Origin: Okamejei kenojei
Taxonomy: Eukaryota
Length of the DNA: 64,000 bases
Direction of reading: 5' to 3'
Assembly (NCBI GenBank): GCA_035221665.1
Contig: CM069164.1
Span: forward strand, 17,856,001 to 17,920,000
Numbering within the stretch: position 1 is the stretch's first letter; each line of letters starts with the position of its first letter. The position numbers were made by a program, and so were the translations under genes. This document shows, piece by piece, positions 288-28,864 of the stretch. The notes beneath the pieces are model-generated. The model had not been told where the DNA came from and ran no database searches. It saw only the letters and a list, made by a program, of their open reading frames with translations.

Positions 288-1235
288 AATAAACCATCCG
301 ATTGTAAATACTTTTTGGAAGGTTATATTTTTGTTACCTGTAGCTTTGAGAAAGCTGTGGGAATGTTTAGTGGGGATGTTTTATAAAGGAAATCTCTGTC
401 TAATTCCCCCGCCGTTTCAACACCCACTCCCCAGTCCACTACAATCATCACTTTACAATAAATAAGAAAACAGTTAGATTACTGATTCTTTTGGATGGGA
501 AGATTATGACATCAAATGCAGTCCAGAACCAGAGCACTTGATCTATCTGGCATTTAGAGTACCAACTAGAGAGTGCCATTTGTTACACTCAAGACTGTTA
601 GATGCCCCCTCACTGAGAATCATGAAATAACACAGCACAGATGCAGGCTGTAGTTTGCAGCTTGCCTCTTTGGTGGAGTTATCTCACTAATCCCGCTTTC
701 CTGTTATTTCCTCAACCTTGGTTAACAACACGTTGCTATTTGTGTGTCCTTTATGCACAAAGAATGGTTATCAACAGAAGCCTCAGTGTATGTGATACAG
801 GCTAGTGCTCTGCTCAATGGCCTATTGACATTGAGCGTACCAACATTAAAAAAAATTCTGCCCGTCTCCCTTTTGGCCAGTTATATATTTTCACAGCGTG
901 ATATTTGAAGTTCAGGTCTAGAGTTACAATGTGCGTAGAAGGCTTTTTCTTATAAAATGGCATCTCCAGCCTGACATCGCAATGCCTCTGTGTACTAGTA
1001 CTTGGCAACCACATTCCTTGCCATCTTTTGAATTTCATATGTTAAAAGCAAATTTCCAGCATTACCTTTACTTTTTTGTAAAAGGGAACAAAAGAAGAAT
1101 GTCAAATCATGGTTTTAACACTTTACTGCAAGCATTGTTGCCCATAATATGTCAGTTATTTACAAAATGTTAATATCATTTGATTTTTGGCATTGCATGC
1201 ATGGCTTTATCATTGATCCTGCTTAATTGTTTCAG

Positions 1236-1385
1236 CTTCCAATCTGTAATTGAAGAATGCGTGAAGCAGATGAATCTCGAATTATATCAGATGAGAGGAA
1301 ATGGGAACTCATCTACCAACAGGAACAGCGCAGCCATTGACGCAGAAACCGTCCTTAGGCCTTTAATGGATCTTCTGGATAAAAA
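1236..1385 (+). CDS. unc13c: unc-13 homolog (Munc13-3-like) coding exon A, MUN domain
   Basis: ttcag| acceptor, |gtaaag donor; [49 protein letters not shown] recognised as UNC13C-like; upstream exons lie outside the window. Confidence 0.93.
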
Positions 1386-1647
1386 GTAAAGTGTCTCTGT
1401 CAATAAGCTTCTGCCCAAAGATAACCATTTGATCCATCACTTGCATTGAAATGCAAATATCATGGGGAATTTGGCATTTAAATTGTAGTTATCAGGAAGC
1501 AGTGTTGCCAGCCAATTTTCTCACTGTGATGCTGATAGGATGCTGTTTTATATGTATGGTCTGCTGGCAGATCTTGTGGCGCATAATACAAGTTTTTTGA
1601 TGTCTTAACTGTCTGATGACAGCGGATATTTTTTCTTTTTATTCCAG

Positions 1648-1771
1648 CCTGACGCTGTTTGCTAAAATCTGCGAGAAGACTGTTCTAAAAAGGGTTCTGA
1701 AGGAACTTTGGAAAATAATTCTGAACGTAATAGAAAGAAAGATTGTTTTGCCTGCGCTAACTGACCAAAGT
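1648..1771 (+). CDS. unc13c: unc-13 coding exon B
   Basis: ttccag| ... |gtaagt; (N)[41 protein letters not shown], a conserved MHD2 segment; phase 2 in, phase 0 out. Confidence 0.95.
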
Positions 1772-2557
1772 GTAAGTACTAGCCAACTGTTGCTACAGAA
1801 ACTACTTTGTACAAATATTTCATAAATAGGCACCACCTCTCTGCCACATATCAAGCGGGAAGCCAGGGATGACACAGATTCCTAATGCGTACACTGTTTC
1901 ACAACATAGCTCTGAGATTAAATGTCAGTCTAAAGATACGATGATGTACATCACTGGGTAATCTGTCATTCGTTTTAGAATCAAGAATTAGAACAAAGAT
2001 ACAGGTTCAACATGGAATGAAGCCACCAATTTGTCTGGTGTCATTTTTTGAAGTGTGTGATTAGCAGTTGTGAACAATGGAGTACATTAGGGTTCAGTGC
2101 TGGCTCCACTATTGTTTGTTACCTACACTAACAAGGAACACAAAATCTAATGAAATTTGTGATGCGCACTTTCCCACCACAAAGCCGTACTCGCTATCTC
2201 TAATTAATCCTTTTAATCTACAAATGCTGGTAGATCTTGTCCCCAAGAGTCCCAATCCAACAACTTTCCCACCGCTGATGTCATGCTCATCAGCTTGTCC
2301 TTGCAGCCCTTTTCTAAAATAAAAGGACATTAGTCATCTTCCAGTCTTCCTGTACTCACCCATGGTAAACGATGATAGAGCAAAGTTATTTCTTCCATGG
2401 GTTCCATAATGTCCTAGGATATGCTTGGTCAGGCCCTGGGGATGTATTCGCCTAGGCATGCATTAAGACTGCCAGTGATTCCTCTTTTCTGATGTGGATA
2501 TGTTTCAAGACATCATTATTCTCGCCCCAAATTCCCAAGCTTCCAAGACCTTCTATG

Positions 2558-3445
2558 CTATGAGGCTGCAGGGTGACTTGGACAGGTTTGGTGAGTGGGC
2601 AGCTGCATGGCAGATGCAGTGTAATGTGGAAAAATGTGAGGTTATCCACTTTGGTGGTAAGAACAGGAAGGCAGATTATTATCTGAATGGCGTCAGATTA
2701 GGAAAAGGGGAGGTGCAACGATACCTGGGTGTGCTTGTACATGTGTCACTGAAAGTAAGCATGCAGATACAGCAAGCAGTGAAAAAAGCAAATGGCATGT
2801 TGGCCTTCATTACGAGAGGATTTTAGTTTAGGAGCAAGGAGATCCTACTGCAGTTGTACAGGGCTCTGGTGAGACCGCACCTGGAGTATTGTGTGCAATT
2901 TTGGTCTCCTAATATGAGGAAGGACATTCTTGCTATTGAGGAAGTGCTGTGTAGGTTCACCAGGTTAATTCCCGGGATGGCAGGGCTGACATATGATGAA
3001 AGAATGGGTCGACTTGAGCTTGTATTCACTGGAATTTATAAGGATGAGAGCAGATCTTATAGAAACATACAAAATTCTTAAAGGATTGGACAGGCTAGAT
3101 GCAGGAAAAATGTGCCCCGTTGGGGGAGTCCAGAACCAGGGGTCTCAGTTTAAGAATAAGGGGTAGCCCATTTAGGACTGAGATGAGGAACAACTTCTTC
3201 ACCCAGAGAGTTGTGAATGTGTGGAATTCTCTTCCACAGAAGGCAGTGGAGACCAAGTCACTAGATGTTTTCAAGAGAGACTTAGATTTAGCTCTTAGGG
3301 CTAAAGGAATCAAGGGTTATGGTGAAAAAGCAGGAACGGGGTACTGATTATAGATGATCAGCCATGATCATATTGAATAGCAGTTCTGGCTCAAAGGGCC
3401 GAATGGCCTAATCCTGCATCTATTTTTCTATGTTTCTATGTTTCT
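2558..3445 (+). mobile_element. CR1-clade LINE, 5'-truncated ORF2 C-terminal part with 3' tail
   Basis: Frameshifted ORFs RLQGDLDRFGEWAAAWQMQCNVEKCEVIHFG, YRALVRPHLEYCVQFWSP and FFTQRVVNVWNSLP; ends with a (CTATGTTT)n tail. Confidence 0.92.
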
Positions 3446-4396
3446 CCATCGTAAGAGGAGAAATATTTACCTCAGATTTTGTCCACGTCCAGTGGCTTCA
3501 CATACAGATACCCAGATTGATCCTTAAGGGATCCTATCCTCTCTCTAATTTCACTTCTGCTTTTAATATATGTAATGTATTTGCTAGGGTTGTCCTTTCT
3601 CCTTATCTGCTAGGAATATCGCACGTGCTCATGGATTAATGCTTCCAGTATTCAATAGGGTATTTTCTGTAGAATTTACATGCAAACCATACTGCTTAAA
3701 TGGAACATTAATCTCCTTTCCCTGGTGCCAGTTAAACAAATTCTTCATGGGTTCTCCGTTAATCTGAATGGTACATGGTTCTTTTGAACAATTTGGTCCT
3801 GCATGATTGACATTGATTCGATAATATTATTCATAGATAAGCAACCAATAAAATGAACATTCCAATCAAGATAGAATGGAGATTCTTCTAAGCATGTCAT
3901 TTTGCTTTACATTCTGAAGGAGGAGATTTCTAGCTCGCCTGTTTGAAGTTGTTAACCTTACTCGTGTGTTAGCTATTTTTGATTACAGAATGGTTTTCTA
4001 TTCATCAAGTTATGTTGTTAAATCTGTCGAGCTCAGGGCATCAGCTCTATCGGCCAGTGAACAATGTGAGGGAGGAAGAATGTATTTACTTGTTAAAGAA
4101 GGAACTGCAGATGCTGGAGAATCGAGGGTACACAAAAGGCTGGAGAAACTCAGCGGGTGCAGCAGCATCTAAGGAGCGAAGGAGATGGGCGATGTTTCGG
4201 GTCGAGACCCTTCTTCAGACTGGTCAGGGATCAGGGAAACGAGAGATATAGACGGTGATGTGGAGAGATAAAGAACAATGAATATGCAAAAAAATATCAA
4301 TGATAAAGAGAACAAGCCATTGTAAGTTGGGGGTTACACAAAAAGCTGGAGAAACTCAGCGGGTGCAGCAGCATCTAAGGAACGAAGGAGATAGGC

Positions 4397-4424
4397 GACG
4401 TTTCGGGTCGAGACCCTTCTTCAG
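4397..4424 (-). ncRNA. Minimal type I hammerhead ribozyme core (best-preserved copy)
   Basis: Minus strand reads CUGAAGA A GGGU-CUCG-ACCC GAAA CGUC: conserved core, 4-bp helix II, palindromic ACGU helix III and a GUC cleavage triplet. Confidence 0.65.
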
Positions 4425-4703
4425 ACTGGGGCCCGAGGGCTGTGGGAGAGGTGGGAAGGGGAGGAGACAGCAAGGGTTAACAGAATTGAGAAAATTCAAT
4501 GTTGAATTTTATTCTCGGGCCCTGGCATTCCCTCTCTCTCTATCTCCCTCCCCCACCCTAGTCGCACCAGCTTCTAATTTTCACACCACAAACAGCTTAC
4601 AGTGGCTTGTTCCCTTTATCATTGATACTTTTTTGCATATTCATTGTTCTTTATCTCTCCACATCACCGTCTATATCTCTCGTTTCCCTGATCCCTGAAC
4701 AGT

Positions 4704-4731
4704 CTGAAGAAGGGTCTCGACCCGAAACATC
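4704..4731 (+). ncRNA. Minimal hammerhead ribozyme core (AUC variant); mirror copy at 4191-4218 on minus strand
   Basis: CTGAAGAAGGGTCTCGACCCGAAACATC. Confidence 0.55.
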
Positions 4732-5602
4732 GCCCATCTCCTTCGCTCCTTAGATGCTGCTGCACCCGCTGAGTTTCTCCAGCCTTTTGTGTACCCCCAA
4801 TGTATTTACTTGCTTGTGATTTAGATAATGTTGCAGGCAGTTATTTCTTCATTGGCAAAGAGCAAACTTAACGTCACCATAAATTATGGGGAGTTTCAGT
4901 GGGGAACAGGCAATTTCACGATTTGTACTGAGAAGAGAAGAATGGTGGTATACTGTCAGGAAATAATCAGAAGGTACTTTCCCATCCATTTTACACTGTT
5001 TCCCTGCTCCTCCCCCCCACCATTCCTCAATCCCTCATGCTCCCCCTCTCTACCCATTCCCTGCCCTCTACGTTTCACACATCGAGATTATGAAATCAAT
5101 AGAAATGAAATGGAAAATTCTGTGCTTCCAACAATATTGTTTCTCCCTTTCCATTTTCCTGAGTCGCGCAACACTTCGAATCTCTGAACAAAAGGTCAGT
5201 TGGACATCAATTCCAAATTCCTGCCAGCGTTGCACTGAAATTAACGGGCACACATGACTGAACACAGAACTGGCGAATTACTACCCTTTTCCATGGCAAC
5301 AGCTCTCCGTTCAGGAACCCGTCATGTGGACAATTGCATACAGAGGCATAGCTCGTGCTGCTTCTGTGGCATTAGGCATGGGTCCGATGCTTCACCTGGC
5401 TCACTGTGTCAGAAGTTTCAGTCATTGTGAAAATGGAAAAAGGATTTGGAGCAAGTTAAAACCAATGGGTTTCTCTGCATTAACGGAATACGGAATATTC
5501 TCAACAGTTGCACTAAATGTCTGCGTTCAAGCGCATCTGGATCTCGTTGATTTGTGAATCGTCCTCTATTTTCCAAATAATGCCATTGTTCTCCTCACGG
5601 TG

Positions 5603-5626
5603 TGAGAGAGAGAGAGAGAGAGAGAG
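5603..5626. repeat. (GA)n microsatellite
   Basis: Direct reading. Confidence 0.9.
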
Positions 5627-7849
5627 GTGGCATTTTAATTCCTTGTTATGGAGCCTTCAAGTGAGCTCCTGATTTATTTCTAGGTATTGCTCGTGGAAGG
5701 GATATTCTATTCAAGTCTAATGCCTATAACTTTACATCAAATTCCAGATTGTTGCTGCTGTAAGTGATTAGGGAGTTTGAGACAGAATTCAGGTAATTTC
5801 AGGATTTGTGCTGTGAAGAGTAGCATAAATCTTGTTAAAGTGGCTGATGATGTCCCCTGTTCCCTCTCCACCACAACCTTTCTGTCCCACGTTTACTTGC
5901 AACTCCCCCTCCTCTTCTTTATTCCCAAGCCCTCTTCCTTCTCCCTCTCCTGTGCTCCCTCAAGGTTCAATTACATGACTGTGAGTGTCCACCTGCATGT
6001 GCCATGGTACCACTAAAAACTGTAAATGCTGCAGAGCAAGTTCAACAAATGCAGAGGAAATTGCTAAGATTTACAAAAAGAGTGGAAAGGTTGCTATTCC
6101 AGTTATAGAGGAAGAAACACTGACCACCTGTTTGAATTGGTTGCAGAGTACAGGCAGTCCCCACCGTATCACAGATGTTCGCAGGACAGAAATGAACAAA
6201 AAGGGTGTGTGGGAGAAGATCACAGAAACAGCAGTAATGGGAGGGCGAGCAGGCGCCGAGAGAGCAGCCGCCAGCCGGCCTCACTGGCTCTGTGAGTGAG
6301 TGAGTGAGTCTGCTTAGTGCACCCAGCACTGCTCAGTGCAGCCTAGCTCTCAAATGGAGCGGCTCGGCATAGAGGGGAGAGAAGCTGTATAGAAGCGCCC
6401 TATTCATTAGATGTCCGCCTACCCTGCTGGTGTCCCAAATACTCACTCATTCCATAAGTCAGGCATTAGCAACCCAAGGAGGTACTTGAAAGAAAGCCGT
6501 TGATATAATGGATATTTCAGTGAAGTAATTTTGAGGTCCAAAATCAAAAGTATAAGCAAATAAGGATGTATAAAGAGAAAATGTGTACAACAATGAGAGA
6601 AAATTGAATATAAAACGAAAATTGGTTCTAAAATTCTGAGTCTGAATTTAACCTGGAAGATATTGTCAAAGTATTTATGTGGATCATTTAGTTTCCTCAA
6701 AGATGAAGCCATTGTCACTTCTCCCCCACCCTCAACACCAGCTGGCATTGTGTTCTAACATCAAATGCACACACCTCTCCCTCCCACACCCCCACTGAAT
6801 TGTTCTTTAGACACACTTGCCTTTCACCATTCAACCTTCATGGTCGTCTCTGTAACCTATTGCTCCTCTGCAACACTTTTACTCTCAAGGAACCCATAAA
6901 AGACCAACACATTTTCTTTTATAGCCAGCCACTGATCAATATGCTTTTATCCCAGTTGTTTATGTTTTTCCCGGTGTTTGGGACAATGTTTAACCTCATT
7001 CACTTTTATACTATCAAGCTGACATTTGTCATACCTCCCCATATATCTGCATTATTCTGTGAGTTCTGTCTTTTCCCTCATGTCTTTCCCCCCAATAGAA
7101 TGCAATCTGTCCCTGAATTATCTCCTCTCTAAAGGTTGTCCATTATTCTGTTCATTTTATCCTTGCCATTCTTTTAACTTCAATCAGATCATTCCGAAAT
7201 TCCCTAAAATAATCCCCTTCAGTTAAATAATCTAGTTTCATATTCTGCAATTCCCATCTATATTAACTTCTTGACTCAATTCAGCAATTCTTCTTCACTG
7301 ACTAGAAAGTTTCTCTCTTAACCATCTTTTACACAATTATTCAACAATTTGCTATTATCTCATTCTCTTTCAAAAATGCATTGTAACCTGACAGCTCCTT
7401 TGACGTTTCAGACATTAAGCAAATATAATTTGCCTTGCACCCCTCAGATTATTCACTTTATCAAACACTGAACTAATTTCCTCAATCTAAATGCTACATT
7501 GAAATGATTTTCCCTCCCTGTTTTTCCTGAATATAATGTACCCCAGATATATTAAACACCCATGAACAATACCACCTGAGGTGGAGGTTTCAAGCTGTAG
7601 AACTATTTATCTGTGGGCATTTTAACAATTTCTGGAGATTTAATGCATTGGTTCAAACTAGGTTTTTCACTATACACTGATGATCAATAGGATGACAATA
7701 TCGAAACACAATGTTCTCAGAGAGAATGGCATAGTTGTGGAGCACAGTAGTCCCCCTTCAACACAGCAGGTCCATGGTGACCATCAGGTACCCATTGATA
7801 CTCATCGCATTTATGAGCACCTGGTCTATAGCCTCTCAGTCTTGGCAGT

Positions 7850-8135
7850 TCAAGTTCAAGTGAGTTTATTGTCATGTGTCCCTGATAGGACAATGAAATT
7901 CTTGCTTTGCTTCAGCACACAGAGCATAGTAGGCATTTATTACAAAACAGATCAGTGTGTCCATATATCATCATATAAATATATACACACATGAATAAAT
8001 AAACTGATAAAGTGCAAATAACAGATAATGCGTTATTAATAATCAGAGTTTTGTCCGAGCCAGGTTTAATAGCCTGATGGCTGTGGGGAAGTAGCTATTT
8101 CTGAATCTGGTTGTTGCAGTCTTCAGGCTCCTCTT
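7850..8135 (-). mobile_element. L2/Rex-Babar-like LINE 3' end
   Basis: caagttcaagtgagtttattgtcatgtg...atgaaattcttgctt...agcctgatggctgtggggaag, typical of an antisense fish LINE tail; related pieces at ~21945-22030 and ~57215-57445 (+). Confidence 0.55.
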
Positions 8136-9809
8136 CAAGGAGTCTTTTTAAATGTTGTGAGATTAAAAGTTACATACATTACACTATTTGGACCCATCAA
8201 ATTCTCATATTTTTCTAACTCTTTTAAGTGCAGAATCTCAATTCTGAGAAAGGATGGGTTGGATTCTAAGACTCAATTACAAGACAAAATTATTGGCACC
8301 AGGAACTGAACCACTCCACTCCCCAGCAGAGGCAAGTGGCCAACCTACTTAAGGATGCTCTCTGCTTTCATTTAACACACATTTTAAACTACAGGCTTCC
8401 TAGACCACTGGAGACTTGGCAGCTGTAAACACAAAAGCTGGGCTGAGTCCATGAGGAGGTGTCTTCAAAGTACTGTGCTGGCCAAGACAAGCAAGCTGGA
8501 GCCTCAGACTCAAAACACAGTCAGTAAATCCACAATGAAAAAAATATTTCCTGCCTCTCCAACCATCACCTCACCTCATTCTCTTGACCCATGTCACACC
8601 ACCTTTTCCCTACTCTTTGCACCATACAACTCGAGACAAAACCAAGTGATTCTAAAAAGCTCCCTCTCCGTGATTTATCTCCAAACAATTTCAACCAAAT
8701 GTCCTCTATTTTAATTCTCAGGACTTTTGGGAAAACTTTTGCATAGCTTTCACCCCAACCTCTTGAGATCCTTCCCACTGCACAACACCAGTCCATCAAA
8801 GCCACTGATCATTTTGAACCCCTCCTTAAATCTCTCTTTTCCTTACACTCAATGATATCTCCCAGAGCTTTTGTCTTTCCACAATGCTGAATTTTCTCTC
8901 CTTGATATCTGTGCTCGTTCCTAAACTCTGCTTGACTTATTTCAATTCAAACCAGTATGGCTCAAGATACACTCTCTTGCTTTTCTGTTCAATGCACAAT
9001 TTATAAACACAATAAATATTTTTTTAACAATGTTATCAATATCTACCTGGAAAGATTTAAATATTTACGTCATGGTCCTTGATTGAAAGCTGGCATATTA
9101 TGATTAACAACTATTCCTTAATGCAGTAACTTGTTCTCAATTGTTCTCAACTTGTTCTCAACTTATTGTCATCCTGTAACTGAGTTCTTTACAACCCTGC
9201 CTCTGTTAGACATGCGAGTCTGCCACAAAAGTTTCAAATTCTCTGACCAAATTAATGTTCATGTTGGGAACGCAACCACTTTAATTCAACATTCAGCATC
9301 AATCCCAAGGTCTGCACTGAATACTGCTTTGGATCTTGTTTCATCCATGACTATGGAATCTTCCCTCAAACTGCACACTTGCTAAATACAAGGACAACCA
9401 TAGGGATCAGAATACATGACTAAGATAATTCTTTGCTCACAGCATAGTCAGCATGGCAACATCTTGCATCCTTATCATGGTATGCAGACAGTGCTAACTG
9501 TGCTGTTGAATGCCAGTATGAGAGGCAAAAATCTCTTAAAGGAGAACTGCATCACTGTAAGACTGCCTGCAGCTCTCAAAGGAGGTCGAGGGAGTCTATG
9601 GCAGATTTCAGTGCAGACGTCTCTGTCACTTCCTCCTCATTGTGCTTCGGGTCAGAGTATTGCTTCCTGAACAATCTGGGGAGATGTGACTTCCTACTGC
9701 ATGTCCTCCTCCCGGCATCTTGCACTATTTGGGGCAACCTTTGCCATTCTTCCACTGATGCTGCATGGTGAGGGGAATGCAGACTTGAGCACCTTAGGTC
9801 AGTGTTAAC

Positions 9810-10520
9810 TGGAAACACAAGAGTCTGCAGATGCTGCAATCTAGAACAAAAAACTGAATGCTGGAAGAACTCAGCAAGTCAAGCAGCAACTGTGAAGGCT
9901 AACATTGTATGCCAGCATTTTGGGTTGTTCATAGCAGTACGTCCAGGTGAGAAAGAGGTTCATGTGCACCTCCCCTAACCTCATCTACTGCATCGGGTGT
10001 TCCCGATTTGGTCTACTGTACATTGGCGAGACTCGGTGGCCGTTTTCGCTGGACATTGGCTCGATCCGCCAATGCTTACTGGATCCCTCAGTTATTAATC
10101 ATTGTAATTCCCCTTCCCATGTATGAACATTGATCTCTCCAATTTTAGGTAACTAACATTTCTTCCCTTTTTTATCTCTCCCGTTTCCCAATTAGACTTG
10201 CACCTATTTCTCTTCTCCCCTTCCACCTACATTACTTTCTTCTAGCTTCACGATCCACAACTCTTCAATCCTTTTGTATCAAACCTTCTGTCTTTTCGTC
10301 TCTGGCCTCTGTCCAACCATCTGCCTATCAAAGACCCCCCTCACCCGTATCCACCTATTACCCAGCAGAATTTGTCCTGCTTCTCCTCTCTTCCAGCTTT
10401 CTTCCCCCATCCCCCCAACACAATCAGTCTGGAGAACGGTCCTGACCCAGAAAGTCACTTATCGATGCTCTCCAGAGATGCTGCTTGACCCACTGAATCG
10501 CTCTAGCACGTGTATTTTCT
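9810..10520 (+). mobile_element. Penelope-like element 3' fragment: GIY-YIG endonuclease relic, terminal repeat and upstream inverted partial repeat
   Basis: 9942-10120 translates as QVRKRFMCTSPNLIYCIGCSRFGLLYIGET..., the GIY-YIG signature; followed by the same repeat tail with a degenerate hammerhead at ~10428-10457; inverted tail copy at 9810-9900. Confidence 0.8.
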
Positions 10521-13344
10521 TGGATTGAGACCCTGCTTCAGGACCGAGTGGGAACAGGAAGGATTTCTGGTAGAGAATAGCCCAAGGGGGTTGCTGTTAC
10601 GACCACCTCTTGGGACAAAGTCTCCATAATGGCCACAATTGTAGGTCCATGCATTGATTCGGGCCCTAGGTTCATTCGTTTTACGCAAAATACTCTTGCA
10701 TTGGCATGCAGTGACTGGCTTAGCTGCCTGAATAAAGGAAATTATATTCACTGCACTCTAATTAACTGAAAAGTGCCACAGTTACTTGTTATCTTAAACT
10801 ATCAGCCGGTGCACACAGATCATTGGCACTGCAGCACCCATTCAGTAACTGTTCAACTTTATGCAGTTTGATACTGAAACAAATGCCAATAACTGTGTCA
10901 GACTTTCATTATCGTAATATTAACCTGCTCTACAAAAGCCAGATTCTGTAAAGGTTCCCTGTTATTTGGAGCTCACAGGACAACATGCTCTTAAATCCAT
11001 AGTACTAACTTAGAAGGCCTGCAGATAAGTAAAATACTTCCCCCAATTTCTCAAATGCATTGAAGTATCATCAATTTTCAAATATTTAGTTGCAAAGTGG
11101 TCATAGACATTGGGGTATACTTTCGAGATGCTATTCAGGAATAAAATGGGTTATTTGACCACCCATTCAATTTCCATCTCCTCCAACTTAATGTGATTGG
11201 GAGGGACTTCTGTGCCTTATATTGGGAAACATTGAAACTCTCATGTGAATTCCAGCTCTTTGTTCCATTTAGTTACCTAATCCACCAGTTTACTTCATCT
11301 TATGGATTTAGACCCACCAAAATATTCTTCAAATATTTCAGACTTTAAACTGGGCAGGTATAAAAAAGACATCGACCTCAAACCTACCCATTAATGGCAA
11401 AGACAGCTCTCAATTATCATCATTAATGGAATTGATCTGAAGTTATATACTCTCTCGATGTCCCATTGCAAATTCACAGCAATTTATCTTACCTTTCAGT
11501 TTTTATTTCTGGTGCTATATTTTGAAGTCATGAAAAATCCTCAGCGTTATAACCAATTAATCCTTTGGGATTTTTTTCCAACTTGCCATTTCTCTTCAAT
11601 CATGCCATATTTTACTCTGATCTCGTGGGTCAATATAATGTTCCTCCTAGCTGACATATAGAAGGCAAAAATACAGTATGCTATTTATTTCCACAAATAC
11701 TAAACTTTCCCATTGTTGCCCATGTCAGAAATGCTCCATTTTTTAACAGGTTTTGACATAGAATCAGATCGCAACTCTTCCATCTTCTCCTCTGTGCAAC
11801 TGTAATGAACTGCTCTCCTGTTTAAATTAAACCAGCTGCATTGACTTTTCCGACTTTGAGTTTTTGACATTTTCCCAGATTGAGACTTTTTTTAGCAGAT
11901 GCCTTTGTTTTCACCTTCCCCGGTAATCTGTAGCATATTCTTTGATTTGCTGAAGCTCCCACTTCACTTGAAGCTTTTGTAGAATAAGTAAACAGATATG
12001 TTTTACTTCTTAGTTTTAATTAGAAACAAGCCTACTTGGAAGCAGCAGCATAGCCTTTGAACCACGTTAAACTGAGCAAAATAAAGCTGTCAGACATCTT
12101 TTCGAAATGTCACAGTGGAAGATGTGTAGTTATATTACAATATATACTGTGAATTCATCTCTTTGATAAGTTTTGATGAAAGCAGAGATAATTTCCCTCT
12201 TTGTCAAGTGTGCTACCAGTGCTACCATTTCAGTTGGTTGGATACCACTTGGAGTTTACTTTTCTCTTGTATCTAGGTATATTGATGCAACATCAAACAT
12301 ATCTCAACCTTTTATCTTGTAAGACTATTAAGATGTAAATTAGGCACATTGTTCAATTTCTCTCAGTAACAATAGCATTTGATATTCTGAGGACTTTTCC
12401 TTTCAATAGAAACATGAATTTCGCCTTCCATTCCGGTGCTAAAATTGGATATCTGAACAGATTACAATTGAGAAATTAAAAATATATATTGTTGAGATTG
12501 TTGTAAGAATACTTAAAGTTATTCCATGTTTCTTGATTCATTGTTTTAGTAAAAATGGGTCTATTATATATAAGCGAAGGCCTCAGTTAAAGTAACAAAT
12601 AGAACATTTTTCCTTGTATGTTAAGGATTGCAACGATTTATACATTGTAAAAGCAATCACCAGTCTGCAGAGATTATGTTTATGGCACAAACCTAGCCCA
12701 TTAAACAACGAACAGTCGATAGCATTGCTATGAAAATCAATAAAACTCTAGAGGCTATAAATCTGAAATAGAAGTAGTAAATACTGTTGTCACTCAGCAT
12801 CTGTGGAGAGGGAATCAGAGTTAATTTTCCAGATCAGATAGCGTAGATCTATTTTGATTTAGATAGATCAGTGTGGTTTCCATAATCAATAAAGTTTGTT
12901 ATCGAGATAAGTACTGAAGGAAATCTTTAAAAGTCTTGTTTAAAAATCAAAACGTATAACCTTCTACTTGTGGATCACAGCATTTTGTACTTCTGTGATG
13001 CTTTTGAATGTGATCTTTGGGAGGACAAGAAGGTATCACGAGACCACATGAGAACTCCCACATCCCATTGGAAAGGCAGCAGAGGATTTAGTTTGCCATC
13101 ACAATTAAAATATGTAGTATTCTTACATGGAAATACCATCTTGGGTCAGCTATGGCCAGTTCCTGCCTGAAGAAGTGAGGGTGCTGTCAAAACCAATTAT
13201 ACTTTTATAATGATACTAGTAAAGCATCTAATAACACTTCACTGGAGAAAATCCCTAGAAAGTTTAAAAAAAAATGTATTAGGCTAGATGATCAAAGAAT
13301 TAAGCTCAAGGGAGCATGTTCCTAAAAAGTAGAAGCGAAAAAAT

Positions 13345-13632
13345 TTTAGTTTAGTTCAGAGATACAACATGGAAACAGGCCCTTCAACCCACCGAGTCCA
13401 CACCGACCAGCGATCCCCACACAATAACACTACCCTGCACACATCAGGGACAACTTTACTTTTACACCAAGCCATTTAACCTACAAACCTCTACGTCTTT
13501 GGAGTGTGGGAGGAAACCAAAGATCTTGGAGAAAACCTACGCAGGTCACAGGGAGAACGTACAAACTCATTACAGACAAGCATCCCTAGTCAGGATCGAA
13601 CCCAGTAGCTCTCCCGTTGCACCACCATGCCC
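13345..13632 (-). mobile_element. tRNA-derived V-SINE/HE1-like SINE
   Basis: (TTTAG)n tail; central TTAACCTACAAACC..GTCTTTGGAGTGTGGGAGGAAACC; B-box-like GGTTCGATCC on minus strand. Confidence 0.85.
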
Positions 13633-14289
13633 CAATAGGGGCAGAGGATTCAGTGTCAGGGACTTGGTGAGTTAAACCATGCACTGGTTACAATGAGACA
13701 TGTTCGAGGCCAGACTTGGAGGAACACCTGTATAGTTGATAGTTGTGGGGCTGCAGGACATCACAAATATGGGAAGTAGTCAAAATATGGGAGCTTCTTC
13801 AAAGAAAGATGGGAAATTTAAAATCTAGGTTTTATTTTTCAGTCACAGTTTCTGAAGACAGGAATGATGGGTGAGTGGGACTTGATTCAATAGGCTACTG
13901 GAAGTAGAGTTTAGGATGACCTCAAGTGTACATAAGATGAGGCACTATAGGACAACTAAGAACACTTTGGAATTGTTGGGTCCAGATGTAAGATGGTGTT
14001 GATGAAAGTTTTAACACCAGATAAATGAAAGGAAGGGCGAGGGTATCAGACAATGTTACAGAAATGTAAATAAGCAATTTTGTTGACAGTGTGTTATCAG
14101 TCTTGGACAGTTGGTGGGAAAGAGATTGTGTCTGTGGCAAGGACTGAAAATAAGGACCAGAATATTCCCAGTATTTAATTGGAGGTGTTCTTTGCCTAGC
14201 CAGTGTTGGATGAAGGAAATGTCTAATAAAATGGCTGGACTAAGCAAGGTTGTGCTGGGATTGTTGGGTCAATGGTTACTATGACTTCA

Positions 14290-14630
14290 GAAGATAGAAC
14301 AGCTCTTTGTCCCGTAATGTTTGTGCCAAACATGATGCTTACATAAATTAATCCCTTCTGCCAGCATGTGTTCCATTTTCCTCCATTGCCTGCATATTCA
14401 TTTATCTATCAAAATGCCTCAAACACCACTGCCGTATCTGCTTCCACCACAACCCCAGGTAGAGCGTGTTCCAGGCACCCACCACTCTCTTGTAAAAAAC
14501 ACTTGCCCTACACATCTCCTTTAAGCATTCCCCTTTTGCCTTTATAGCTATGATCTTTAACAATTGACATTTCTGTGCTGGCAAAAGGTTCTGACTGTCT
14601 ACCCTCTCTATGCCTGTTATGTTAGTATTA
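14290..14630 (-). mobile_element. Old CR1 LINE 3' fragment
   Basis: Minus ORF ...FYKRVVGAWNTL... Confidence 0.7.
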
Positions 14631-15549
14631 TGTCACCTCAACATTTACTTGATACATAGAACATGGCACAGATTTACCAATTTCAGAAGGATGCATTATC
14701 AGAGGTTAAGGCATGGAATGTACAAGGCTGGGTCTGAAGCTCAATTTTTGTCTGAGTACATACAATTACTGTATAAATATTAAGGAACTTATATATTTTT
14801 TTAAAACAATCTGTTTTTAGTACAAATGCACAATATCCCATCACACCGGGAGTATGTGTAGCATTGCTATTTTATGTGGTCTTCTGCCTAGTGACATCAC
14901 ACACGGCCAACTCTGTAAAATTACCACAAAGAAATGTGGATAAAATCAAACAGGTAATTAATTATTCTGAAAGCAAAATACTGCAGATGCTGGGAATACT
15001 CAATGTCAGGCAGCATCTATGGAGTCAGAAACAGGGTTAAACTTGGGTCAATAATCTTTCAGCCAACCTGAAATATATTTTCATTCTATTTTATTTCAGG
15101 TAATTTTACCCATTAATAATAAAGGCAAACAGCGCTTCGCTTATACCTACAGGAGATTATAAAAGGACTGGACAAGCAAGATGCGGGGAAAAAATATATA
15201 TTCATTGTTGATTTAGGATGGTTCACAGTTACACCATTACTTTATGACAAATACTGATTTTAGGTAGCATAGTTTTTCATCGATATGCTGTGGATGCTGT
15301 AGCAGAATTATATCTGGGACTTGCCCTGGTAATGCAGGCAAAGCTTTGATTGCTACATGTGTGTCATCAGTTAATACAGTGTCAATTATTTTTGCTTGGT
15401 ACTCTGAATTTTAGTTTGTTTTTGTCTTGAAAAGGTAACAAAGCAGTTTTTAAACTTTGTTTCCCCAAATAAACAATGATATTCAAAGGCTCTTCTTTGA
15501 TGGCTTTGGTTTTCCACTCACTGCAATATTTTTGTCCTGTTCTTTCTAG

Positions 15550-15606
15550 GGAGCTCAAATGATCTTCAGTGCAGCAAAAGACTTGGGCCAGCTATCAAAG
15601 CTAAAG
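15550..15606 (+). CDS. unc13c: unc-13 coding exon C (57 nt)
   Basis: tttctag| ... |gtaaca; GAQMIFSAAKDLGQLSKLK; not in the ORF track. Confidence 0.93.
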
Positions 15607-16509
15607 GTAACAGTATGAATTTATTGGCTGTAGTAAAATTCGCTTCTATTTAATCTTGCCCTCCCTAGTGGTTTCCCCTTAAAATCCATATATCAGACAT
15701 ACATCATAATGATTGAAATTCCTTGCAAGAAGCTAAACGAAATATATTCTAGAACTAAACGATTCCAGTGATTCTTTACATTGAGCATGGTTCTTCAGTA
15801 CGACTTAAAATGATGTGTGTGGGACTCTGCCAATTATAATTTACATATCCCTGTCAAAATATGCTTCATACTGAATCATAGCACAAATAAGCATGTCATT
15901 GAAAATAGAAACTGTTTAGTATTTCAAAGATGCATTCCCTGGAAATTCAGGCAGAACATTTAGGTCATCAGAACGTTCTATATTTTTAATTGATGGGGAA
16001 GAACTCAAGGGTTAGATTAAAGGCTTTTATCAAAAGCACTTTGCAATTTTTGAATGGTAATGTAAAAGAAAACTGGAAGTAATAATATGCACATTCTGAA
16101 ACACAGCTGGAGTAAAAATATATGAAAAACAGTTTAATTGTCTATAATGTGATTCATTGAACTCAGGCAGAATTACTCTGTTCCAGTCCGTAGAGATATT
16201 TAGTATGTTTTAAAGTAAGTCAAAATGTATCAAGTGAAATTCAGTAGTTGAGTATTTCTAGCATCATTGTTATATTGTAAACATTTAAATTGCATTAACT
16301 GGAAGCTGCATGTTGATAAATTCAAGATTATGCATGCATGCATTTGCTTTCATTGAATGTGCTGTTACTAGTAAAATGTATTTAAACTAGTCTGGCAGGG
16401 GATTGATACCCAAAATATTGGTGTAGTAGATGAGAATATTGAAACAAATATAGATGTTAAAGCGAGAAGGAAACAGTAAGCAGACCAGGGAGCAATACGC
16501 AAATTGCAT

Positions 16510-16692
16510 TTCTCTGGTTCTCTGGATACTTTCAAGAGAGAGCTAGATAGGGCTCTTAAAGATAGCGGAGTCAGGGATATGGGAGAAGGCAGGAACGGGG
16601 TACTGATTGGTGATGATCAGCCATGATCACATTGAATGGCGGTGCTGGCTTCAAAGGGCCGAATGGCCTACTCCTGCACCTATTGTCTATTG
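16510..16692 (+). mobile_element. Short CR1 3' end
   Basis: Closely matches the 3' end of the 34125-35385 element; (CTATTGT)n tail. Confidence 0.85.
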
Positions 16693-17313
16693 CATTTATT
16701 TTAATGTATAAAGCCTGACAGATAATGCAGAGGAGCTCAGGGCACGGATTGGCACCTGGGATTGTGATATTTAGGTAGCACGATAATATGATTGAGATAT
16801 TGGCAGGACTGGCAGCTCAATGCGCCTGGGTGCAGATGCTGCCAGGTAAGATAGAGGTGGAGGTAAGATAGGAGAGGGGAAGTTGCAATATTGACAAGGG
16901 AGAACATTATGGCAGTGGTTAAAGAGAATATTCCTGGGGCAATGTCCAGTGTAGTTAAATAGGTACAATTTAGAGAGATATGGGGAAACATGATAAAATG
17001 GAGCTGGCTCAGTAGTCATCACTTGGTCGGCTTGATCAAATTGGGCCAAAAGACTGTTTGTCTGCTGTATAACTCTGTGACTATGACATTGAACCTCTAG
17101 TCCTACTTTGCTCTTGATACATACTGTCAAGTTCCTTGAGATATATAAATTAATCTAGGTTACTATATATACTAGTTTCTTAAAACTATAACGAGTAATG
17201 TTAATGTTATGGCTAGTTACTTATTTCTCTGGTAAGCGGAATAATGTTTTGATCATATAATTTTGCAATATATTCACTAATTAAACATGTTTCGTTTGAT
17301 AAACCTCAATTAG

Positions 17314-17394
17314 GAACATGTGATTCGTGAAGAAGTGAAAAGTCTCAGTCCTCGCCAATGTGCAATAATGGAAGTCGTGTTGGCCACCATAAAG
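17314..17394 (+). CDS. unc13c: unc-13 coding exon D (81 nt)
   Basis: aattag| ... |gtattg; [27 protein letters not shown]. Confidence 0.93.
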
Positions 17395-18426
17395 GTATTG
17401 CCTGGATTCTGTGTGAGCACAGATTCATTCATCAATTAATGTTTTATTGTTCAATGTTGATCAAAAATGGGATCTTCTAAAAAAAAAGTATCTGTTTGTC
17501 CACCCTGAATGAATCTGTGTACAATGATGGAGGTTGCCCAGCAGAGAGAGTGCAGAATCTCCCTATTCCGTAAACATGGAGGGCACAATGAAGAGATGGA
17601 ATGATCACACTGATGTCCACAGGTGATTTCACAATGGACAATAATGAATCTACTGCCTGTTTTCTGCCTTAACTAATTTACTTTCTTCTCAACTCTTTCA
17701 CTTTATTCCCAAAGCCAGATTTGGTCAGTTATGGATGGCTGGTGCCTATGGTAGGATGCTGCACACATCTGGTACCTTTTCTCCAAAAAGCCAAGTCACA
17801 TTTTTATGCAGTAATGTTACATTTTGTAGTTATGCCATTGCATATCAAAACTATGTCATTGTTAGATGCTAAAATCATTAGCTCTGCATTCACTACCCCT
17901 TCATATATAAAGCTGATAAAATATACCACATATTTCAAATGTGAATCACCTGATAAAATTATAAAAATACATTCCCTCTTTCTTCTTTTGCATTAATATT
18001 GTTCCTTTTAGATCAACACGCACTTATAGGCTGGATCATTTTATACTACAATTATTTTCCCAATGCTGTTGATAAATGAAAAGATGAGAAGCAGCAACAG
18101 TCTGAAATTGGCTGCCTGAGGCTTCCAGTTGCTTACAGTAATGATTGTTTTTGATAGTAAAAATAGTTATTAGTCAGAAACACTGAAACAGAGGGAGTTA
18201 ATCTCCAGCACACACTGACTAATGCACAGCTGCCCCTCATGCAATCCAGTGACAGCTTTGGTAAACAAATAGATTTAATATATCACTGAATAATTTGCAC
18301 AATGGCAAATGTACAGAGAACACAGTGTGTAAACCCCTTCTTCTCCATTTTCAACCAATGAATTTCCAAGGTAGCACTTTGCCCTGTTATTTTCTAAATT
18401 CAAAGCCTATAATCGCCTTTCTCCTG

Positions 18427-18692
18427 TGTAGGAAGGAAGTGCAGGTGCCGGTTACACCAAAGATAAATACAAGATGCTGGAATAACTCAGCGGGCCAGGC
18501 AGCATTTCTGGGTAGAACCGTTCCTTCTATCCAGAAATGCTGCCTGTCCTGCTGTTACTCCTGCATTTTGTGTTTATCGCCTTTCCCCTTCTGCCTGTTA
18601 TGTCAACATTGCTGCATTGGAAAGACTTCCTATTCCTTGCCTGCACTGCCAATTTCAAATCAATATTTCCAGCATCTGCAGTTCCTTCTTTA
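18427..18692. mobile_element. Fold-back remnant of the Penelope-derived repeat
   Basis: gatgctggaataactcagcgggccaggcagcatttctgg followed by its inverse ccagaaatgctgcctgtcctgctg.ttactcctgcattttgtg. Confidence 0.65.
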
Positions 18693-20625
18693 ACACATTG
18701 GGGATTGTTGATTATTCCTGCTAATTCCCCTTTCCAGCAAAAGGTGAAAGTATTCCTACATTCTGTTAGCATGCTAACAGAAACATCTGGAATAATATTC
18801 CAATGGATTTACTCAAGTTGAAATGTGATTTAGTACTTCATGTTGGTTTGAATATTTTAGTCTTTGATTTTCATTTTGGAATGTTTCTTTAGTTTTTGTG
18901 ATAGTTTGTAAAACAGTTAATAAAATAAATCAAGAAATTTGCTTCAGGCGTTGGAGGATTTGCTGGTACCTTTATTCACAGAAGCATGAAGGTCAGCTGT
19001 TGTAGCAAGATTCAGTAGACATTAAGTGAAAATTTCACAGGGGTAACTCACTTCTGCAGATGCCTCACTTTAATAAAATGTTTTAAATCTCTCCTTCAGC
19101 AAAGGCCTACAGAGTGTACCTTTCAATAAACTTAACCGCTTCCAGAAAATTTCATTTGGAATACCTTTTCAGCCAACCTGTCTGTCTTTTTCGAGGCAAA
19201 ATGCCCTCTTTGTTTACCACCACTGATTGCGGAGATGATTACAGCCAGCAGTTGATACTTAGACACACAGATTAAGGATGGATTTCTTTCCATTCACTTT
19301 CAATGCAGAGAGAAAGGGATTGAAGGACACGGGGTATGTTGAGTTGACCTTGAATACACCCATCATGTTGTTCTCTAGCCCAAACATTCAAGTCCAACAC
19401 GTTTCATGTCATTTGAGTTAGTTAATCACTTGGAAAACAATATTCATTTCACGTCTTTACCTTCTTTCATGGGAATACATTTCATTAAAGAAAAGAGGAT
19501 ATTTAAAGCAGTTCTATTTTCATAAATTACTTAAATATGACTATTGATTAATAGATGCAATTACATTCTCTTTTTCCAGTTGCATTTGGGCAATTATAAT
19601 CGTTTCAACTATTGAAGTGTGATCCTAAGCATAATTGAACTTTGGGTTGGAAACAGATAAAGAAAACGAATATGCTCATTGGGGAATGGAGATGCCTTAT
19701 CCAGTTTAGCCAGTTACTCATCAAAGCAGAGCAGATGTGAAGAATAAATCACAAAACAAAATTACCTATATAGAGTGTTGAAGTTGTTAGGAAAAGCAGT
19801 AAAGCTGATATCTGCTTCTTTTTTATATATTTATCTGCAATTAAACAACTATGGTAAGGTGGAATATGAAATATTAACAATATTAATACTTTTTTTCTGG
19901 ATATTTACTGGGTAACAGAAACAGTACAACATAAAAACAATGTTCCAGAGAATCTAGTCATTATTCCAGCAGCAAACTGTTAATCCCCAGTGAGTATCAT
20001 GATATTATGATTGATGAAAGCTTGGAAGAAAGATACAAATAGTGTTTGATCTATTTCTTATCTTATTAATATTTTCCTGACACAGTGGAACAATTTATTT
20101 GACACTGCAAGATGTTAAGTCAGTGAGCTATTCAGGTTTACAGTGCTGAATTCTCTGTCACTTTATCAAACCCCTGTATGTATGGAATATCTTCTAAAGT
20201 GGAGATGTTTTCCGTCTTGTCATACTGTATCTGAGTAATAGTGAGACAATGGTGAGAATATAGCCAGACAAACAGATTTTCCCTGAAAGTGATCGTTAGA
20301 CACTGAATATACCTGAAGTGTTGCAGAAGATGATTGACCCTGACATACAAGTCCAACATAATTCCTGTCATTTGCACCGTAATTAATGGCGGCTGGTGAG
20401 ATTGACATGGCATTTTGAAGTTCTGTAATAATAAGGAGTGGGTGGGGAGGTATGATGCAGAATAGCGGTGATGAGGGCCATCACTTTTAAATGGATTTTT
20501 AGATGAGTGTGATTGAGAACAAGATTACAAATTTGATTCACACCATATGGTCAAATTCAGAACCTGCTTAAAAACTCAATAATATGTGCAACTGCCCCAT
20601 TCAGGCCCACCTGTGGCTTGTATCA

Positions 20626-21152
20626 TGTAGAAACAGGGGACTGCAGATGCTGGTTTAAAAAGACACAAAGTGCAGGAGTAACTTAGCAGGTCCAGCAACA
20701 TCTCTGGAGAACATGGGTAGATGATGTTTTGAGTCGGGGCCCTTCTTCAAACTCGAAGAAGACATGGGATCGCAGTGGTAGAGTTGCTGCCTTACAGCGC
20801 CAGAGACCCAGGCTCGATCCTGACTTTGGGTGCTTGTCTGTACAGAGTTTGTACATTCTCTCCGTGACCTCCATGGGTTTTTGCCGGGATCTCTGGTTTT
20901 CTCCTACACTCCAAAGACGTATAGGTTTGTAGGTTAATTGTCTTGGTGTAAATGTAAATTGTCTCTAGTGTGTGTAGTATAGTGTGTGTGTGGGGATCGC
21001 TGGTCGGCGTGGACTTGGTTGGCCTAAAGGCCCGTTTCCCCGTAATATCACTAAACTAATCTAAAAGTGTCATGACCGGCAATGTCACCTATCAATATTC
21101 TCCAGAGATGTTGCCTGACCTACAGAGTCACTCCAGCACTTTGCGTCTTTTT
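20626..21152. mobile_element. Penelope-derived fold-back element (14-bp TSD) interrupted by a SINE
   Basis: TGTGGCTTGTATCA at 20612-20625 and 21153-21166; inverted arms ~20630-20760 and ~21080-21150. Confidence 0.75.
20768..21063 (+). mobile_element. V-SINE/HE1-like SINE nested in the fold-back element
   Basis: tRNA-like head GCAGTGGTAGAGTTGCTGCCTTACAGCGCCAGAGACCCAGGCTCGATCC; (CTAAA)n tail. Confidence 0.88.
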
Positions 21153-22239
21153 TGTGGCTTGTATCACATCACCTTTTTACCACCCAGCTCTCTCCTACGA
21201 GGCAGACTTCCTGACTGCATCAAAGTCCCAAACAATTAAAAATATCTGGATGACCGTCAGCACCATGGATGAAGACAAAGCCCCAACACAGTTCTAGTAA
21301 CTCTGTGGTTAAAAGGTTTAAAAAGTAATTTCAGATATTTTGTATCAAGATCTGTCAAAGGATTCTTCCTCCAGCATTGCATGATTCATAGTAAATCTTC
21401 ACAGATGATATGTAAAACTGACATGCGTTTATATAAAAGGAACCTGTTCCCATGTGTTAATCAACATAATGGGCTTTATACCATTATAATTAAATTAATA
21501 GTTAAATAGAAAAGATTCTCTATCCCAGCTTCTTACCTTGGCGTAGAATGACCTTATAGCCTGTTCCTTTTATGTAAGAATTTACATATTTAAGTTTACA
21601 CATAATCTCATAGATGATAAGACGTGAATAGCTAATTGTGACAACTACAAGATTTCTGAATAGATTAATATAATATAACCATGTTTTTTCAGCTCAAGTG
21701 ACTGCAATATGTAAATGGGAGGGTTGCTCTGAGTATATCACAAAAAAAATAGATAAGCACCTCGGGTAAAAATCATCTCTCATTCATTTGCAGAATTACA
21801 GTCCATTGTATAGGTAGATTGCTGAAAAAGCACAATAAATCAATGCTATATTTAGTTACATCAAATTAATAAAAAGAAGCCTCCAATGCATTGTATAAGT
21901 AATTTATGGATTCCTATGTTATATAACCCACTTACCTAAGAAAGTCAAGTTGAGTTTATTTGCATATGCATAAGTACAGTGTGATGCAGGAACAATGAAA
22001 ATTGCAGTAGCATCACAGGCATATAGACTTGGACTCAGATAGATTGAGACAGGCCATTGATAAACAATCATCAAGCAAGATGCAGGATTGTTGCAGCAGG
22101 GTTTGGAAAGGTTGGAGTTTATGGAGGAAGAAAGGCCTGTAAATAGAGTTAAAATGTAAACTACAGATGGTGGAAATCTGAAATGAAAATAAATTCTGGA
22201 ATCAAGCACAGATCAGGCTGCATCGCAGAGATTCATTAA

Positions 22240-23240
22240 GTTTACAGCAGAGAAATTGACCCATCAGCACATCACATCCATGCCAACCTTTTTGCTCAAC
22301 TACATTAAACCCATTTGCCTGCATCGTGCCTATAACCTTCTATGCCTTGCCTATTCAAGTGTCTGTTTAAATGTCTCTTAAATATAGTAATTGTATCTGG
22401 CTCCACCATCTCCTCTGTGTAAAAAAAAAAAATCCTTGAGACCCCCTTTAAATCTCCTTCCCCTCGCCCTAAATCTATGCCCCTCTTGTTTTAACCGTGA
22501 AAGGGTGAGGTTACATTTGCTGTGCAGGTAAGTTCTCAAGTTTCATGTGAACAGTTAGAGGGTCGTAACATGTATAATTTGTTGCACGTAGTTGGACTGT
22601 CCCCAGCAATTCAGCCTGTAATAATACAGAGGAAATTTCAATGGTTGACATATGGCAAGGATGTCATCCTTTACTCTCAGTTTTTCTATCTGTGCACATT
22701 TCCATTCCAGGACATCTGAGATGTTCTCTATATTCAGCAAATATAGAGAATGCCATGCTGTTACGGATGCAGCCCTCACTTTGTTCTCCTCTGTTTTCTA
22801 CAGTTCTGTTCCGGTGCTGTCTGTACGGAGAAATCCGGTCCTGGGGATTTATCCATCTTGTCTCTTCCAATAACCTGGGAGAGACCCCATCGGGTCCTGC
22901 CGATTTATCCACCTTAATGCTCTTCAAGAGCCCCAACACCTCCTCTTCCTAGTATTCTCCACACTGATCTCACTGCCTTCCATGTCCTTCTCCTTCGTGA
23001 AAACAGGTGCAAAATACTTGTTTAGTACCACACTTACATCGCCAGACTCTGAGCACAAATTCCCTCCTTTATCCATGAGCAGTTCTATCTTTTCCCTGGT
23101 TACTCTTTTGTTTATATTGTAGGTATAAAAAACTCTGTGATTTTCCTTAATCTGACTCAGCAAAATCATTTTGTGGCCCCATTTTACCCTCTAATTACCC
23201 AGTTGAGTTATTTCCTCCTTTCTTCATATTCCTCAATTAA
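22240..23240 (-). mobile_element. Degenerate CR1 LINE fragments (3' end at ~22240-22490; ORF2 linker at ~22870-23240)
   Basis: Minus ORFs LKSIKVDKSAGPDGVSPRLLEE and VLNKYFAPVFTKEKD. Confidence 0.75.
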
Positions 23241-24550: not shown

Positions 24551-24860
24551 TTTTTTACTTTAGACTTTAGAGATACAGCGCGGAAACAGGCCCTTTGGTC
24601 CATCGAATGCGCCAATCAGCGATACCCCATAGACGAACACTATCCTACACACGGGAGATAATTTACAATTTTTATTGAAGACAATTAACCTACAAACCTG
24701 TACGTCTTTGGTGTGGGAGTATACCAGAGCACCTGGAGAAAACCCACGCGGTCACAGGGAGATGTACAATCTCTGTACAGACAGTACCATAGTCAGGATC
24801 GAACCCGAGTCTCTGGCACTGTTAGGCAGCAGCTCTACCGCTAAGCCACTGTGCCACCCC
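24551..24860 (-). mobile_element. V-SINE/HE1-like SINE
   Basis: Same family motifs; (CTTTAGA)n tail. Confidence 0.85.

Positions 24861-28748: not shown

Positions 28749-28749
<1 letters not shown>

Positions 28750-28862: not shown

Positions 28863-28864
<2 letters not shown>

Follow-up and report, generated by a model that had tools for sequence, protein, structure and literature searches.

Hammerhead motifs in a cartilaginous fish unc13c locus as probable remnants of Penelope-like elements

Motifs of the hammerhead ribozyme type recur along a 64-kb stretch of DNA (64,000 nucleotides, referred to here as the window) that contains the end of an unc13c gene. A preliminary description of this DNA attributed them to a non-autonomous, retrozyme-like repeat family derived from Penelope elements. 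The question raised by the locus is what kind of element these motifs belong to, and what part the hammerhead plays in it.

Protein matches show that the DNA comes from a cartilaginous fish, and they confirm the earlier naming of the gene as unc13c. Its eight exons in the window were mapped with a 99% identical protein, the terminal exon (48498-48779) matches Munc13, and the named proteins closest to this exon, at 86-93%, come from sharks, rays and chimaera and are called UNC13C or 'unc-13 B-like'. The insertion at 4093-4798, which carries the best preserved motif, sits in a 13.8-kb intron (1772-15549), and four of the 18 motifs described below are located downstream of the unc13c stop codon.

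A scan of the window with the 28-nt motif gave seven matches with three or fewer mismatches (Table 1) and none in 100 shuffles. All five sites previously listed as near-intact were recovered. A looser scan, in which downstream family sequence was required, gave 18 motifs in 64 kb and none in two shuffled windows; these included all nine sites listed earlier as degenerate and four further ones (21059, 38024, 52424 and 52622). Because just two insertions (4093-4798 and 32560-33016) account for the five best motifs, the 18 motifs correspond to about 15 insertions. The computed spacing is one insertion per ~4 kb; one remnant per ~5 kb had been estimated.

The proposed parse of the motif holds: CUGANGA, an extra A, a 4-bp helix II with a 4-nt loop, GAAA, an ACGU palindrome and GUC. 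Its core, extra nucleotide and palindrome are as published for Penelope-like elements (PLEs), in agreement with the view that it belongs with the minimal type I hammerheads found in Penelope pLTRs. Helix I, previously given as 2-3 bp, is indeed very short; it measures 2 bp, not 3, in the five best copies, and the 4-5 bp of PLE minimal type I hammerheads are not reached. As for the five near-intact sites, only 4397-4424(-) is a fully intact minimal hammerhead, the sole one among 18. Motifs 4218 and 4704 read ACAU, with a broken palindrome and the triplet AUC, and motifs 32688 and 33010 have one helix II mismatch each. The core (CUGANGA, GAAA, UH) and the ACGU palindrome are complete in three of the 18 copies (4424, 32688 and 33010). 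The extra nucleotide 9.1 is A in 16/16 counted copies, the 10.1-11.1 pair is G-C in 11/17, and the CpG of the palindrome is altered in 14/34 cells. An Rfam scan of the window did not detect the motif as a hammerhead: no hammerhead family occurred at E up to 5 among 11 weak matches. Motif scans of metagenome, prokaryote and viral contigs for host-derived long loci gave 0 each.

Table 1. Coordinates of features in the window
Feature	Position	Strand	Basis or remark
Host unc13c, last 8 coding exons	1234..48779	+	protein match, exon mapping
Left TSD copy, perfect 14 bp, AT-rich	4079..4092	+	score 14; best of 150 random pairs 9
31-nt PLE tail, at left end of insertion only	4093..4123	-	sequence comparison
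Arm A: 5'-truncated pLTR (3' UTR, hammerhead 4218-4191 with broken palindrome, downstream block)	4124..4329	-	
Core B: short pLTR core (98 nt), partial tandem upstream of A, no tail	4330..4429	-	
Intact minimal hammerhead (core, extra A, 4-bp helix II, ACGU, GUC, 2-bp helix I)	4397..4424	-	antisense to unc13c
Segment U: final codons and stop of endonuclease ORF, start of 3' UTR	4430..4503	-	reading frame, contig ends
Inversion junction: 9-bp fold-back palindrome and filler	4491..4513		self-match 4491-4510
Arm C: pLTR in inverted orientation (3' UTR; motif 4704-4731, palindrome broken), no-tail end	4514..4798	+	
Right TSD copy	4799..4812	+	contigs of two related species start matching exactly here
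Decayed GIY-YIG endonuclease C-terminus, older PLE copy	9935..10153	+	then pyrimidine-rich UTR, hammerhead remnant 10429
pLTR of another subfamily	10154..10520	+	upstream part matches 23485 copy
Second composite insertion: short core with motif 33010 and long tailed pLTR with motif 32688, a captured spacer of ~70 nt between them	32560..33016	-	
Frameshifted endonuclease C-terminus, then pLTR with hammerhead lost	57630..58100	+	short matches only
Solo ~115-nt core from hammerhead C3, tailed, 12-15-bp TSD; type example of the short class	60820..60934	+	
Seven best motif sites	4191-4218, 4397-4424, 4704-4731, 32661-32688, 32983-33010, 25502, 60820	-, -, +, -, -, +, +	motif scan

The region 4093-4798 had been taken for dispersed repeats. 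It is instead one insertion bounded by a perfect 14-bp TSD, and its sequence identifies it as a single, recent insertion with PLE anatomy (Table 1). Arms A and C are 97.5% identical and form an inverted repeat of 209 nt. Core B begins 4-5 nt ahead of CUGA and differs from arm A at 5/98 positions; a second template would therefore have contributed to it. Segment U is inverted relative to arm C. An opposite-strand joint 4438/4514 was present in four of four sequencing runs, and loose ends before 4514 occurred in 88 and 41 contigs; U therefore precedes C in other genomic copies. The change that breaks the palindrome is common to arms A and C. It sits at a CpG, and either parallel decay or conversion between the arms could account for it.

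TSD scores were also obtained for 20 candidate insertions whose limits were placed by eye. With a null of 150 random pairs (maximum 9), five scored at least 11, four were borderline at 8 and 11 were at chance level. The 8-bp TSD match of the second composite insertion (32560-33016) is among the borderline cases.

Contigs of four runs were compared with 4430-5300, a region that contains the right flank only, without the left flank. Organisms B and C each yielded one long contig whose match to the right flank (98% and 96% identity) begins exactly at 4799, the first letter of the right TSD copy; each of these contigs also has several hundred more letters with no fit to the element. The corresponding contig from a second sample of organism A runs from the flank into the element. 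The points at which the matches begin indicate that the insertion site is probably empty in two related species.

PLE insertions have been described as combining a partial tandem with an inverted, 5'-truncated copy, one end of the whole carrying a tail of 30-40 bp (PMC8557442). In rotifer Penelope elements the tail has 31 bp and the TSDs 8-10 bp, and palindromes at the junctions and captured DNA occur as well (PMC3846280). The insertion at 4093-4798 resembles EN+ PLEs (Penelope/Poseidon, Neptune, Nematis) in its partial tandem, inverted 5'-truncated copy, 30-40-nt one-end tail and TSD, and the repeat further shares with them the palindrome at the inversion junction, a captured spacer and a GIY-YIG domain at the ORF end (PMC8557442, PMC3846280). 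Unlike EN+ PLEs as described, no reverse transcriptase (RT) or full-length copy was found in the window. The repeat also resembles PAc (Poseidon of Anolis carolinensis), in which two 3' ends with a tail between them likewise follow the hammerhead by ~90-120 nt, targets are AT-rich and the likely template is unprocessed RNA (PMC11167929). In PAc, a start codon is located at the start of stem II (PMC11167929); here positions A9-9.1-10.1 read AAG in intact copies.

The motif itself corresponds to metazoan PLE minimal hammerheads in its core, extra nucleotide 9/10.1, G10.1-C11.1 pair and palindromic 15.2-16.2, and in occurring mostly as single dispersed motifs with some opposite-strand pairs 100-700 bp apart (Cervera and De la Pena 2014, PMC4209133). 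Helix II has 4 bp here versus 7-8 in Schistosoma mansoni, and helix I has 2 bp versus 4-5 typically and 2 in Drosophila virilis Penelope (PMC4209133).

Taken as a whole, the most satisfactory account, which we regard as very likely correct, is that the repeat is the pLTR of a cartilaginous fish EN+ PLE family that inserts in a PAc-like manner and carries the hammerhead as a passenger. The family comprises at least three subfamilies, and its hammerhead is the minimal type I usual for such pLTRs. By analogy with PAc, an RT-endonuclease protein would cut an AT-rich target with two nicks, one in each strand and 14 nt from each other, and cDNA would be primed from both nicks at two internal sites, 89 and 120 nt downstream of A9. 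One start per nick would give head-to-head arms with a 31-nt tail at one end. Core B and inverted U would come from switches of template, first onto a second pLTR and then to the place where arm C had stopped. The template would be uncleaved RNA, because the copies span the cut site. Selection on the hammerhead would be confined to master elements, in which it would probably be a slow ribozyme that depends on dimers and on protein, and its presence in genomic copies and in unc13c pre-mRNA would be that of a passenger.

Several other features of this kind were observed in the window. CCAGC occurs twice, 26-31 nt apart, once before each 3' end, in two subfamilies (4093-4150(-) and 32560-32620(-)), and this paired motif could position the two RT start sites. 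The second composite insertion has a spacer between its pLTRs (32845-32912(-)), one frame of which resembles what we take to be a CR1/L2 LINE reverse transcriptase motif, suggesting a template jump onto LINE RNA or DNA. Three more head-to-head inverted insertions have a tail on one side (18425-18580, 33530-33650 and 37905-38120). The first is the source of weak miRNA-like hairpin matches in the Rfam scan, and its plus arm, at 18518, begins near the hammerhead cut site.

The parent element was sought through its protein. At 9935-10123(+), a decayed 63-aa stretch has 52 relatives at E up to 0.001 in a full HMMER search, and Pfam GIY-YIG was found in 10 of the 17 relatives scanned, four of them above the curated cut-off. 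The 9935 remnant itself had no Pfam or NCBIfam match, and when it and the 57620 remnant were used as queries in word-indexed searches, no homologue was returned. As the 52 homologues were gathered with the 9935 remnant, its re-detection with them is circular. RT motifs were present in one of the 52 relatives, and atlas neighbours of one relative, P0012, combine RVT_1 with GIY-YIG. The end of the endonuclease ORF, the UTR and motif 10429 follow one another in the same orientation. The upstream part of the pLTR at 10154-10520 matches the 23485 copy with a score of 44 (null 99%, 24; null maximum, 47). A second, frameshifted ORF end lies ahead of pLTR 57798, with the tip of the ORF at 57774 (short matches).

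At 4093-4798 itself, the endonuclease link consists of a few codons and a consensus. Loose ends behind 4503 were present in 99 contigs of run X3 and 78 of run X6; the hand-read minus-strand consensus behind 4503 gives L-x-P-x-G-[LM]-N, with an agreement of 0.63-0.71, and the same pattern occurs near the ORF end in 7/52 relatives. The clear endonuclease remnant (9935) belongs to a different subfamily. In all, endonuclease ends were located upstream of three copies. Since these remnants are directly upstream of the repeat, the repeats are read from their sequence as truncated 3' ends of protein-coding PLEs, not as a retrozyme array, and we infer an autonomous master element. No RT remnant or full-length element was found in the 64-kb window. 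Pfam searches of 53 of the 199 window ORFs detected neither RT nor GIY-YIG; the matches were a Tc1 transposase, a C2 exon and one weak DUF7821. Frames from the hammerhead to the tail did not match the 52 relatives (best E 0.32). A linker C-x(3,4)-C-x2-C, as in Neptune and Nematis, was seen by eye in 8/12 printed relatives; the window remnant starts after this region. A linker regular expression that matched 41/52 relatives was discarded, as it also matches the nuclease's own C-x2-C. In a read-through protein, P0018, a peptide resembling the in-frame translation of the window's hammerhead is found ~60 residues past the endonuclease end (by back-translation only), which hints at the same layout in a distant animal.

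The reading put forward in the preliminary description was a different one. In a non-LTR retrozyme, tandem units self-cleave and the monomers circularise and are retroposed. The repeat shares with retrozymes a type I hammerhead, a PLE derivation and non-coding remnants (PMC7229834, bioRxiv 10.64898/2026.07.22.740005), and retrozymes are reported in the one chondrichthyan genome of a 2026 preprint (bioRxiv 10.64898/2026.07.22.740005). In the window, each of two minus-strand tandems contains two hammerheads, at distances of 206 and 322 nt; short back-joints of 39 nt that pass through the motif occur in four of four runs; and a run guessed to be RNA (X15), whose contigs cannot reveal RNA ends, covers the repeat and not the unique flank. 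However, the members of a tandem differ in length, neither tandem is free of defective motifs, and the hammerhead is present in 0/11 tandem-repeat rows. Copies begin upstream of the core and end at tail sites rather than extending from cut to cut, and only one of about six motif-less copies (18518) starts near the cut, as judged by eye. Eight of nine Xenopus dimers did not cleave (bioRxiv 10.64898/2026.07.22.740005). In addition, retrozymes as described (PMC7229834) have equal-unit arrays, a canonical helix I and loop contacts, none of which were found here, whereas the inversion is TSD-bounded and ORF remnants are attached. With PLE anatomy and ORF ends in place of a hammerhead array and cut-site starts, the reading as a separate retrozyme-like family is not supported, and we consider a non-LTR retrozyme very improbable.

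The abundance of the family, also part of the preliminary description, was upheld. The density of 18 motifs per 64 kb is about 280 per Mb. In three DNA runs, summed motif depth was 5.7-6.4 x 10^5 times that of the unique flank, which is not a copy number; the density, if genome-wide, is of the same order as this depth. If the window density holds genome-wide, the family is very abundant, on the order of 10^5 copies or more. This load is seemingly far above the 4,000-9,000 of coelacanth and Xenopus, although the counts are not like for like (PMC4209133). If several hundred thousand motifs are indeed present, the hammerhead load of shark and ray genomes would rank with the highest known, and these genomes would provide a natural dataset on the regeneration of PLE tandems and pLTRs.

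Most copies are short. In 12 of the 18, the motif is not preceded by upstream pLTR sequence common to any other copy, and most of these short copies begin at the 5' edge of the hammerhead, not at the cut site: by eye and with TSDs, ten start between -11 and +4 of C3 and two within helix II. Depth rises 4.1-4.8-fold at 4700 in three DNA runs, partly on account of subfamilies with other UTRs, and 4700-4702 is the commonest position among the upstream loose ends listed. Among 12 of 330 joints listed, all five entering at 4701 have a G just before. In both composite insertions the upstream core starts at CAGT.

The missing upstream sequence and the depth step could mean that the solo ~100-130-nt cores are a SINE-like non-autonomous family, derived from short masters and mobilised in trans by the PLE protein. 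This is the portion of the preliminary description's reading that can still be defended. In rotifers, pLTRs suffice for such mobilisation (PMC3846280). Such a family, which is compatible with the PLE account, seems a tentative possibility: short and long copies have the same subfamily types downstream of the motif, a short core and a long copy are joined in each composite insertion, no promoter belonging to the short cores was identified, and the other-UTR subfamilies account for part of the step.

Starts at the 5' edge suggest instead that uncleaved RNA was copied from an internal start. A more specific version, which we think unlikely, is that the commonest product is a 100-130-nt 'strong-stop' copy, arising from a capped CAGT start, internal priming and integration of the short cDNA. 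The CAGT, three bases before CUGA, is presumably initiator-like. Priming by the protein would take place within the mRNA, at its first tail site, and the cap would sometimes be read as an extra G. The hammerhead would be at the very 5' end of the RNA, held off by post-cut pairing until the protein binds, and this position would therefore explain the 2-bp helix I. A similar edge would also result from a 3' splice site (a pyrimidine tract and CAG) or from an RT pause. UTR-bearing copies have 75-82% pyrimidine upstream, and in D. virilis Penelope an intron ends at helix I (PMC4209133); its promoter has also been described (PMC2377424). With regard to splicing, no common first exon was found upstream of the short copies, and the loose ends before 4700-4702 agree only to 0.31-0.42. 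If the edge does reflect internal priming on capped, uncleaved RNA, both the origin of PLE partial tandems and the use of the hammerhead during PLE transposition become testable from genome data.

Conservation of the hammerhead was assessed with start columns set by eye and with a scan that favoured copies having a good downstream block. The core (11/90 cells changed, 12%), helix II (15/135) and the downstream block (80/594, 13%) are equally diverged. Loop II (17/68, 25%) and the post-cut segment (83/325, 26%) are more variable, largely by subfamily. Helix II showed no covariation: in 18 copies, a small and decayed sample, none of the four pairs was changed on both sides, and 101/500 shuffles reached the score. 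Thus, of the two signs of function proposed earlier, covariation failed to appear, and excess conservation of the core was seen relative to the loop and the post-cut segment but not to the downstream block. The better preservation of the core over these two segments points to selection on master elements, and the sequences fit constraint on masters followed by neutral decay of copies after insertion.

In the predicted fold of the intact copy, the core pairs with the post-cut strand, and the probability of helix II is 0.01. This pairing beats shuffles at 0.05 in two of 12 copies (32688 and 20750), with 0.25 for the intact copy, so that a conserved off-switch by core/post-cut pairing is only a lead from modelling. 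In both native tandems the double-hammerhead fold is 22-24 kcal/mol above the minimum; these energies are for secondary structure, omit tertiary contacts and lack an active-ribozyme control. The doubt about activity voiced at the outset was borne out. Elsewhere, metazoan minimal hammerheads cleave poorly, even as dimers (PMC4209133), and for PAc it is reported that cleavage needs protein, that hammerhead mutants still insert and that no RNA ends were seen at the cut (PMC11167929). Dimer cleavage is dealt with by Lunse et al., as cited in PMC6765202.

It is also conceivable, though on balance doubtful, that this lineage has only a vestige of the hammerhead, which would serve as a signal for protein binding, transcription start or splicing and would not cleave even in masters. 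The short helix I, the predicted sequestration of the core, the lack of covariation, a downstream block as conserved as the core and the anole data would all be expected in this case. Nevertheless, three subfamilies that differ in their UTRs and post-cut segments have all retained every catalytic position, the extra nucleotide and the palindrome, D. virilis Penelope has the same 2-bp helix I (PMC4209133), and PAc does cleave when protein is added (PMC11167929).

Finally, the locus might have been co-opted to regulate unc13c through intronic cleavage or the 209-bp hairpin. In the predicted fold of the sense unc13c pre-mRNA the arms pair fully, as this idea would require. The same pairing buries the arm C motif, already broken, in the hairpin with arm A, and the insertion is apparently absent in species 2-4% diverged. 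Core-intact intronic motifs are antisense only (3/5 minus versus 0/9 plus), and all are from two insertions. We find co-option extremely improbable, and return to the PLE account with a passenger hammerhead.

A literature search for a description of the family returned only the 2026 preprint, which includes one chondrichthyan genome (bioRxiv 10.64898/2026.07.22.740005); the family may already be listed in its tables or in repeat libraries. The present data add a very high-copy chondrichthyan example to a described class, with one clean young insertion in which every PLE hallmark is contained within 700 bp. They also caution against counting such motifs as active ribozymes or retrozymes, as 17/18 are damaged.

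Other repeats are present in the window. A 255-codon ORF in an unc13c intron (43521-44288(+)) matches Pfam HTH_Tnp_Tc3_2 (E 9e-18), a domain of Tc1/Tc3-type transposases. A further dispersed repeat, which is probably a SINE derived from a tRNA, occurs at 20760-20900(-), 40560-40630(+) and 24785-24855(-); this SINE-like repeat lies upstream of two hammerhead copies (score 37) and has a weak tRNA match. At 35699-35790, the post-cut segment of one copy shows a local 43-nt tandem duplication from which the hammerhead core is absent.
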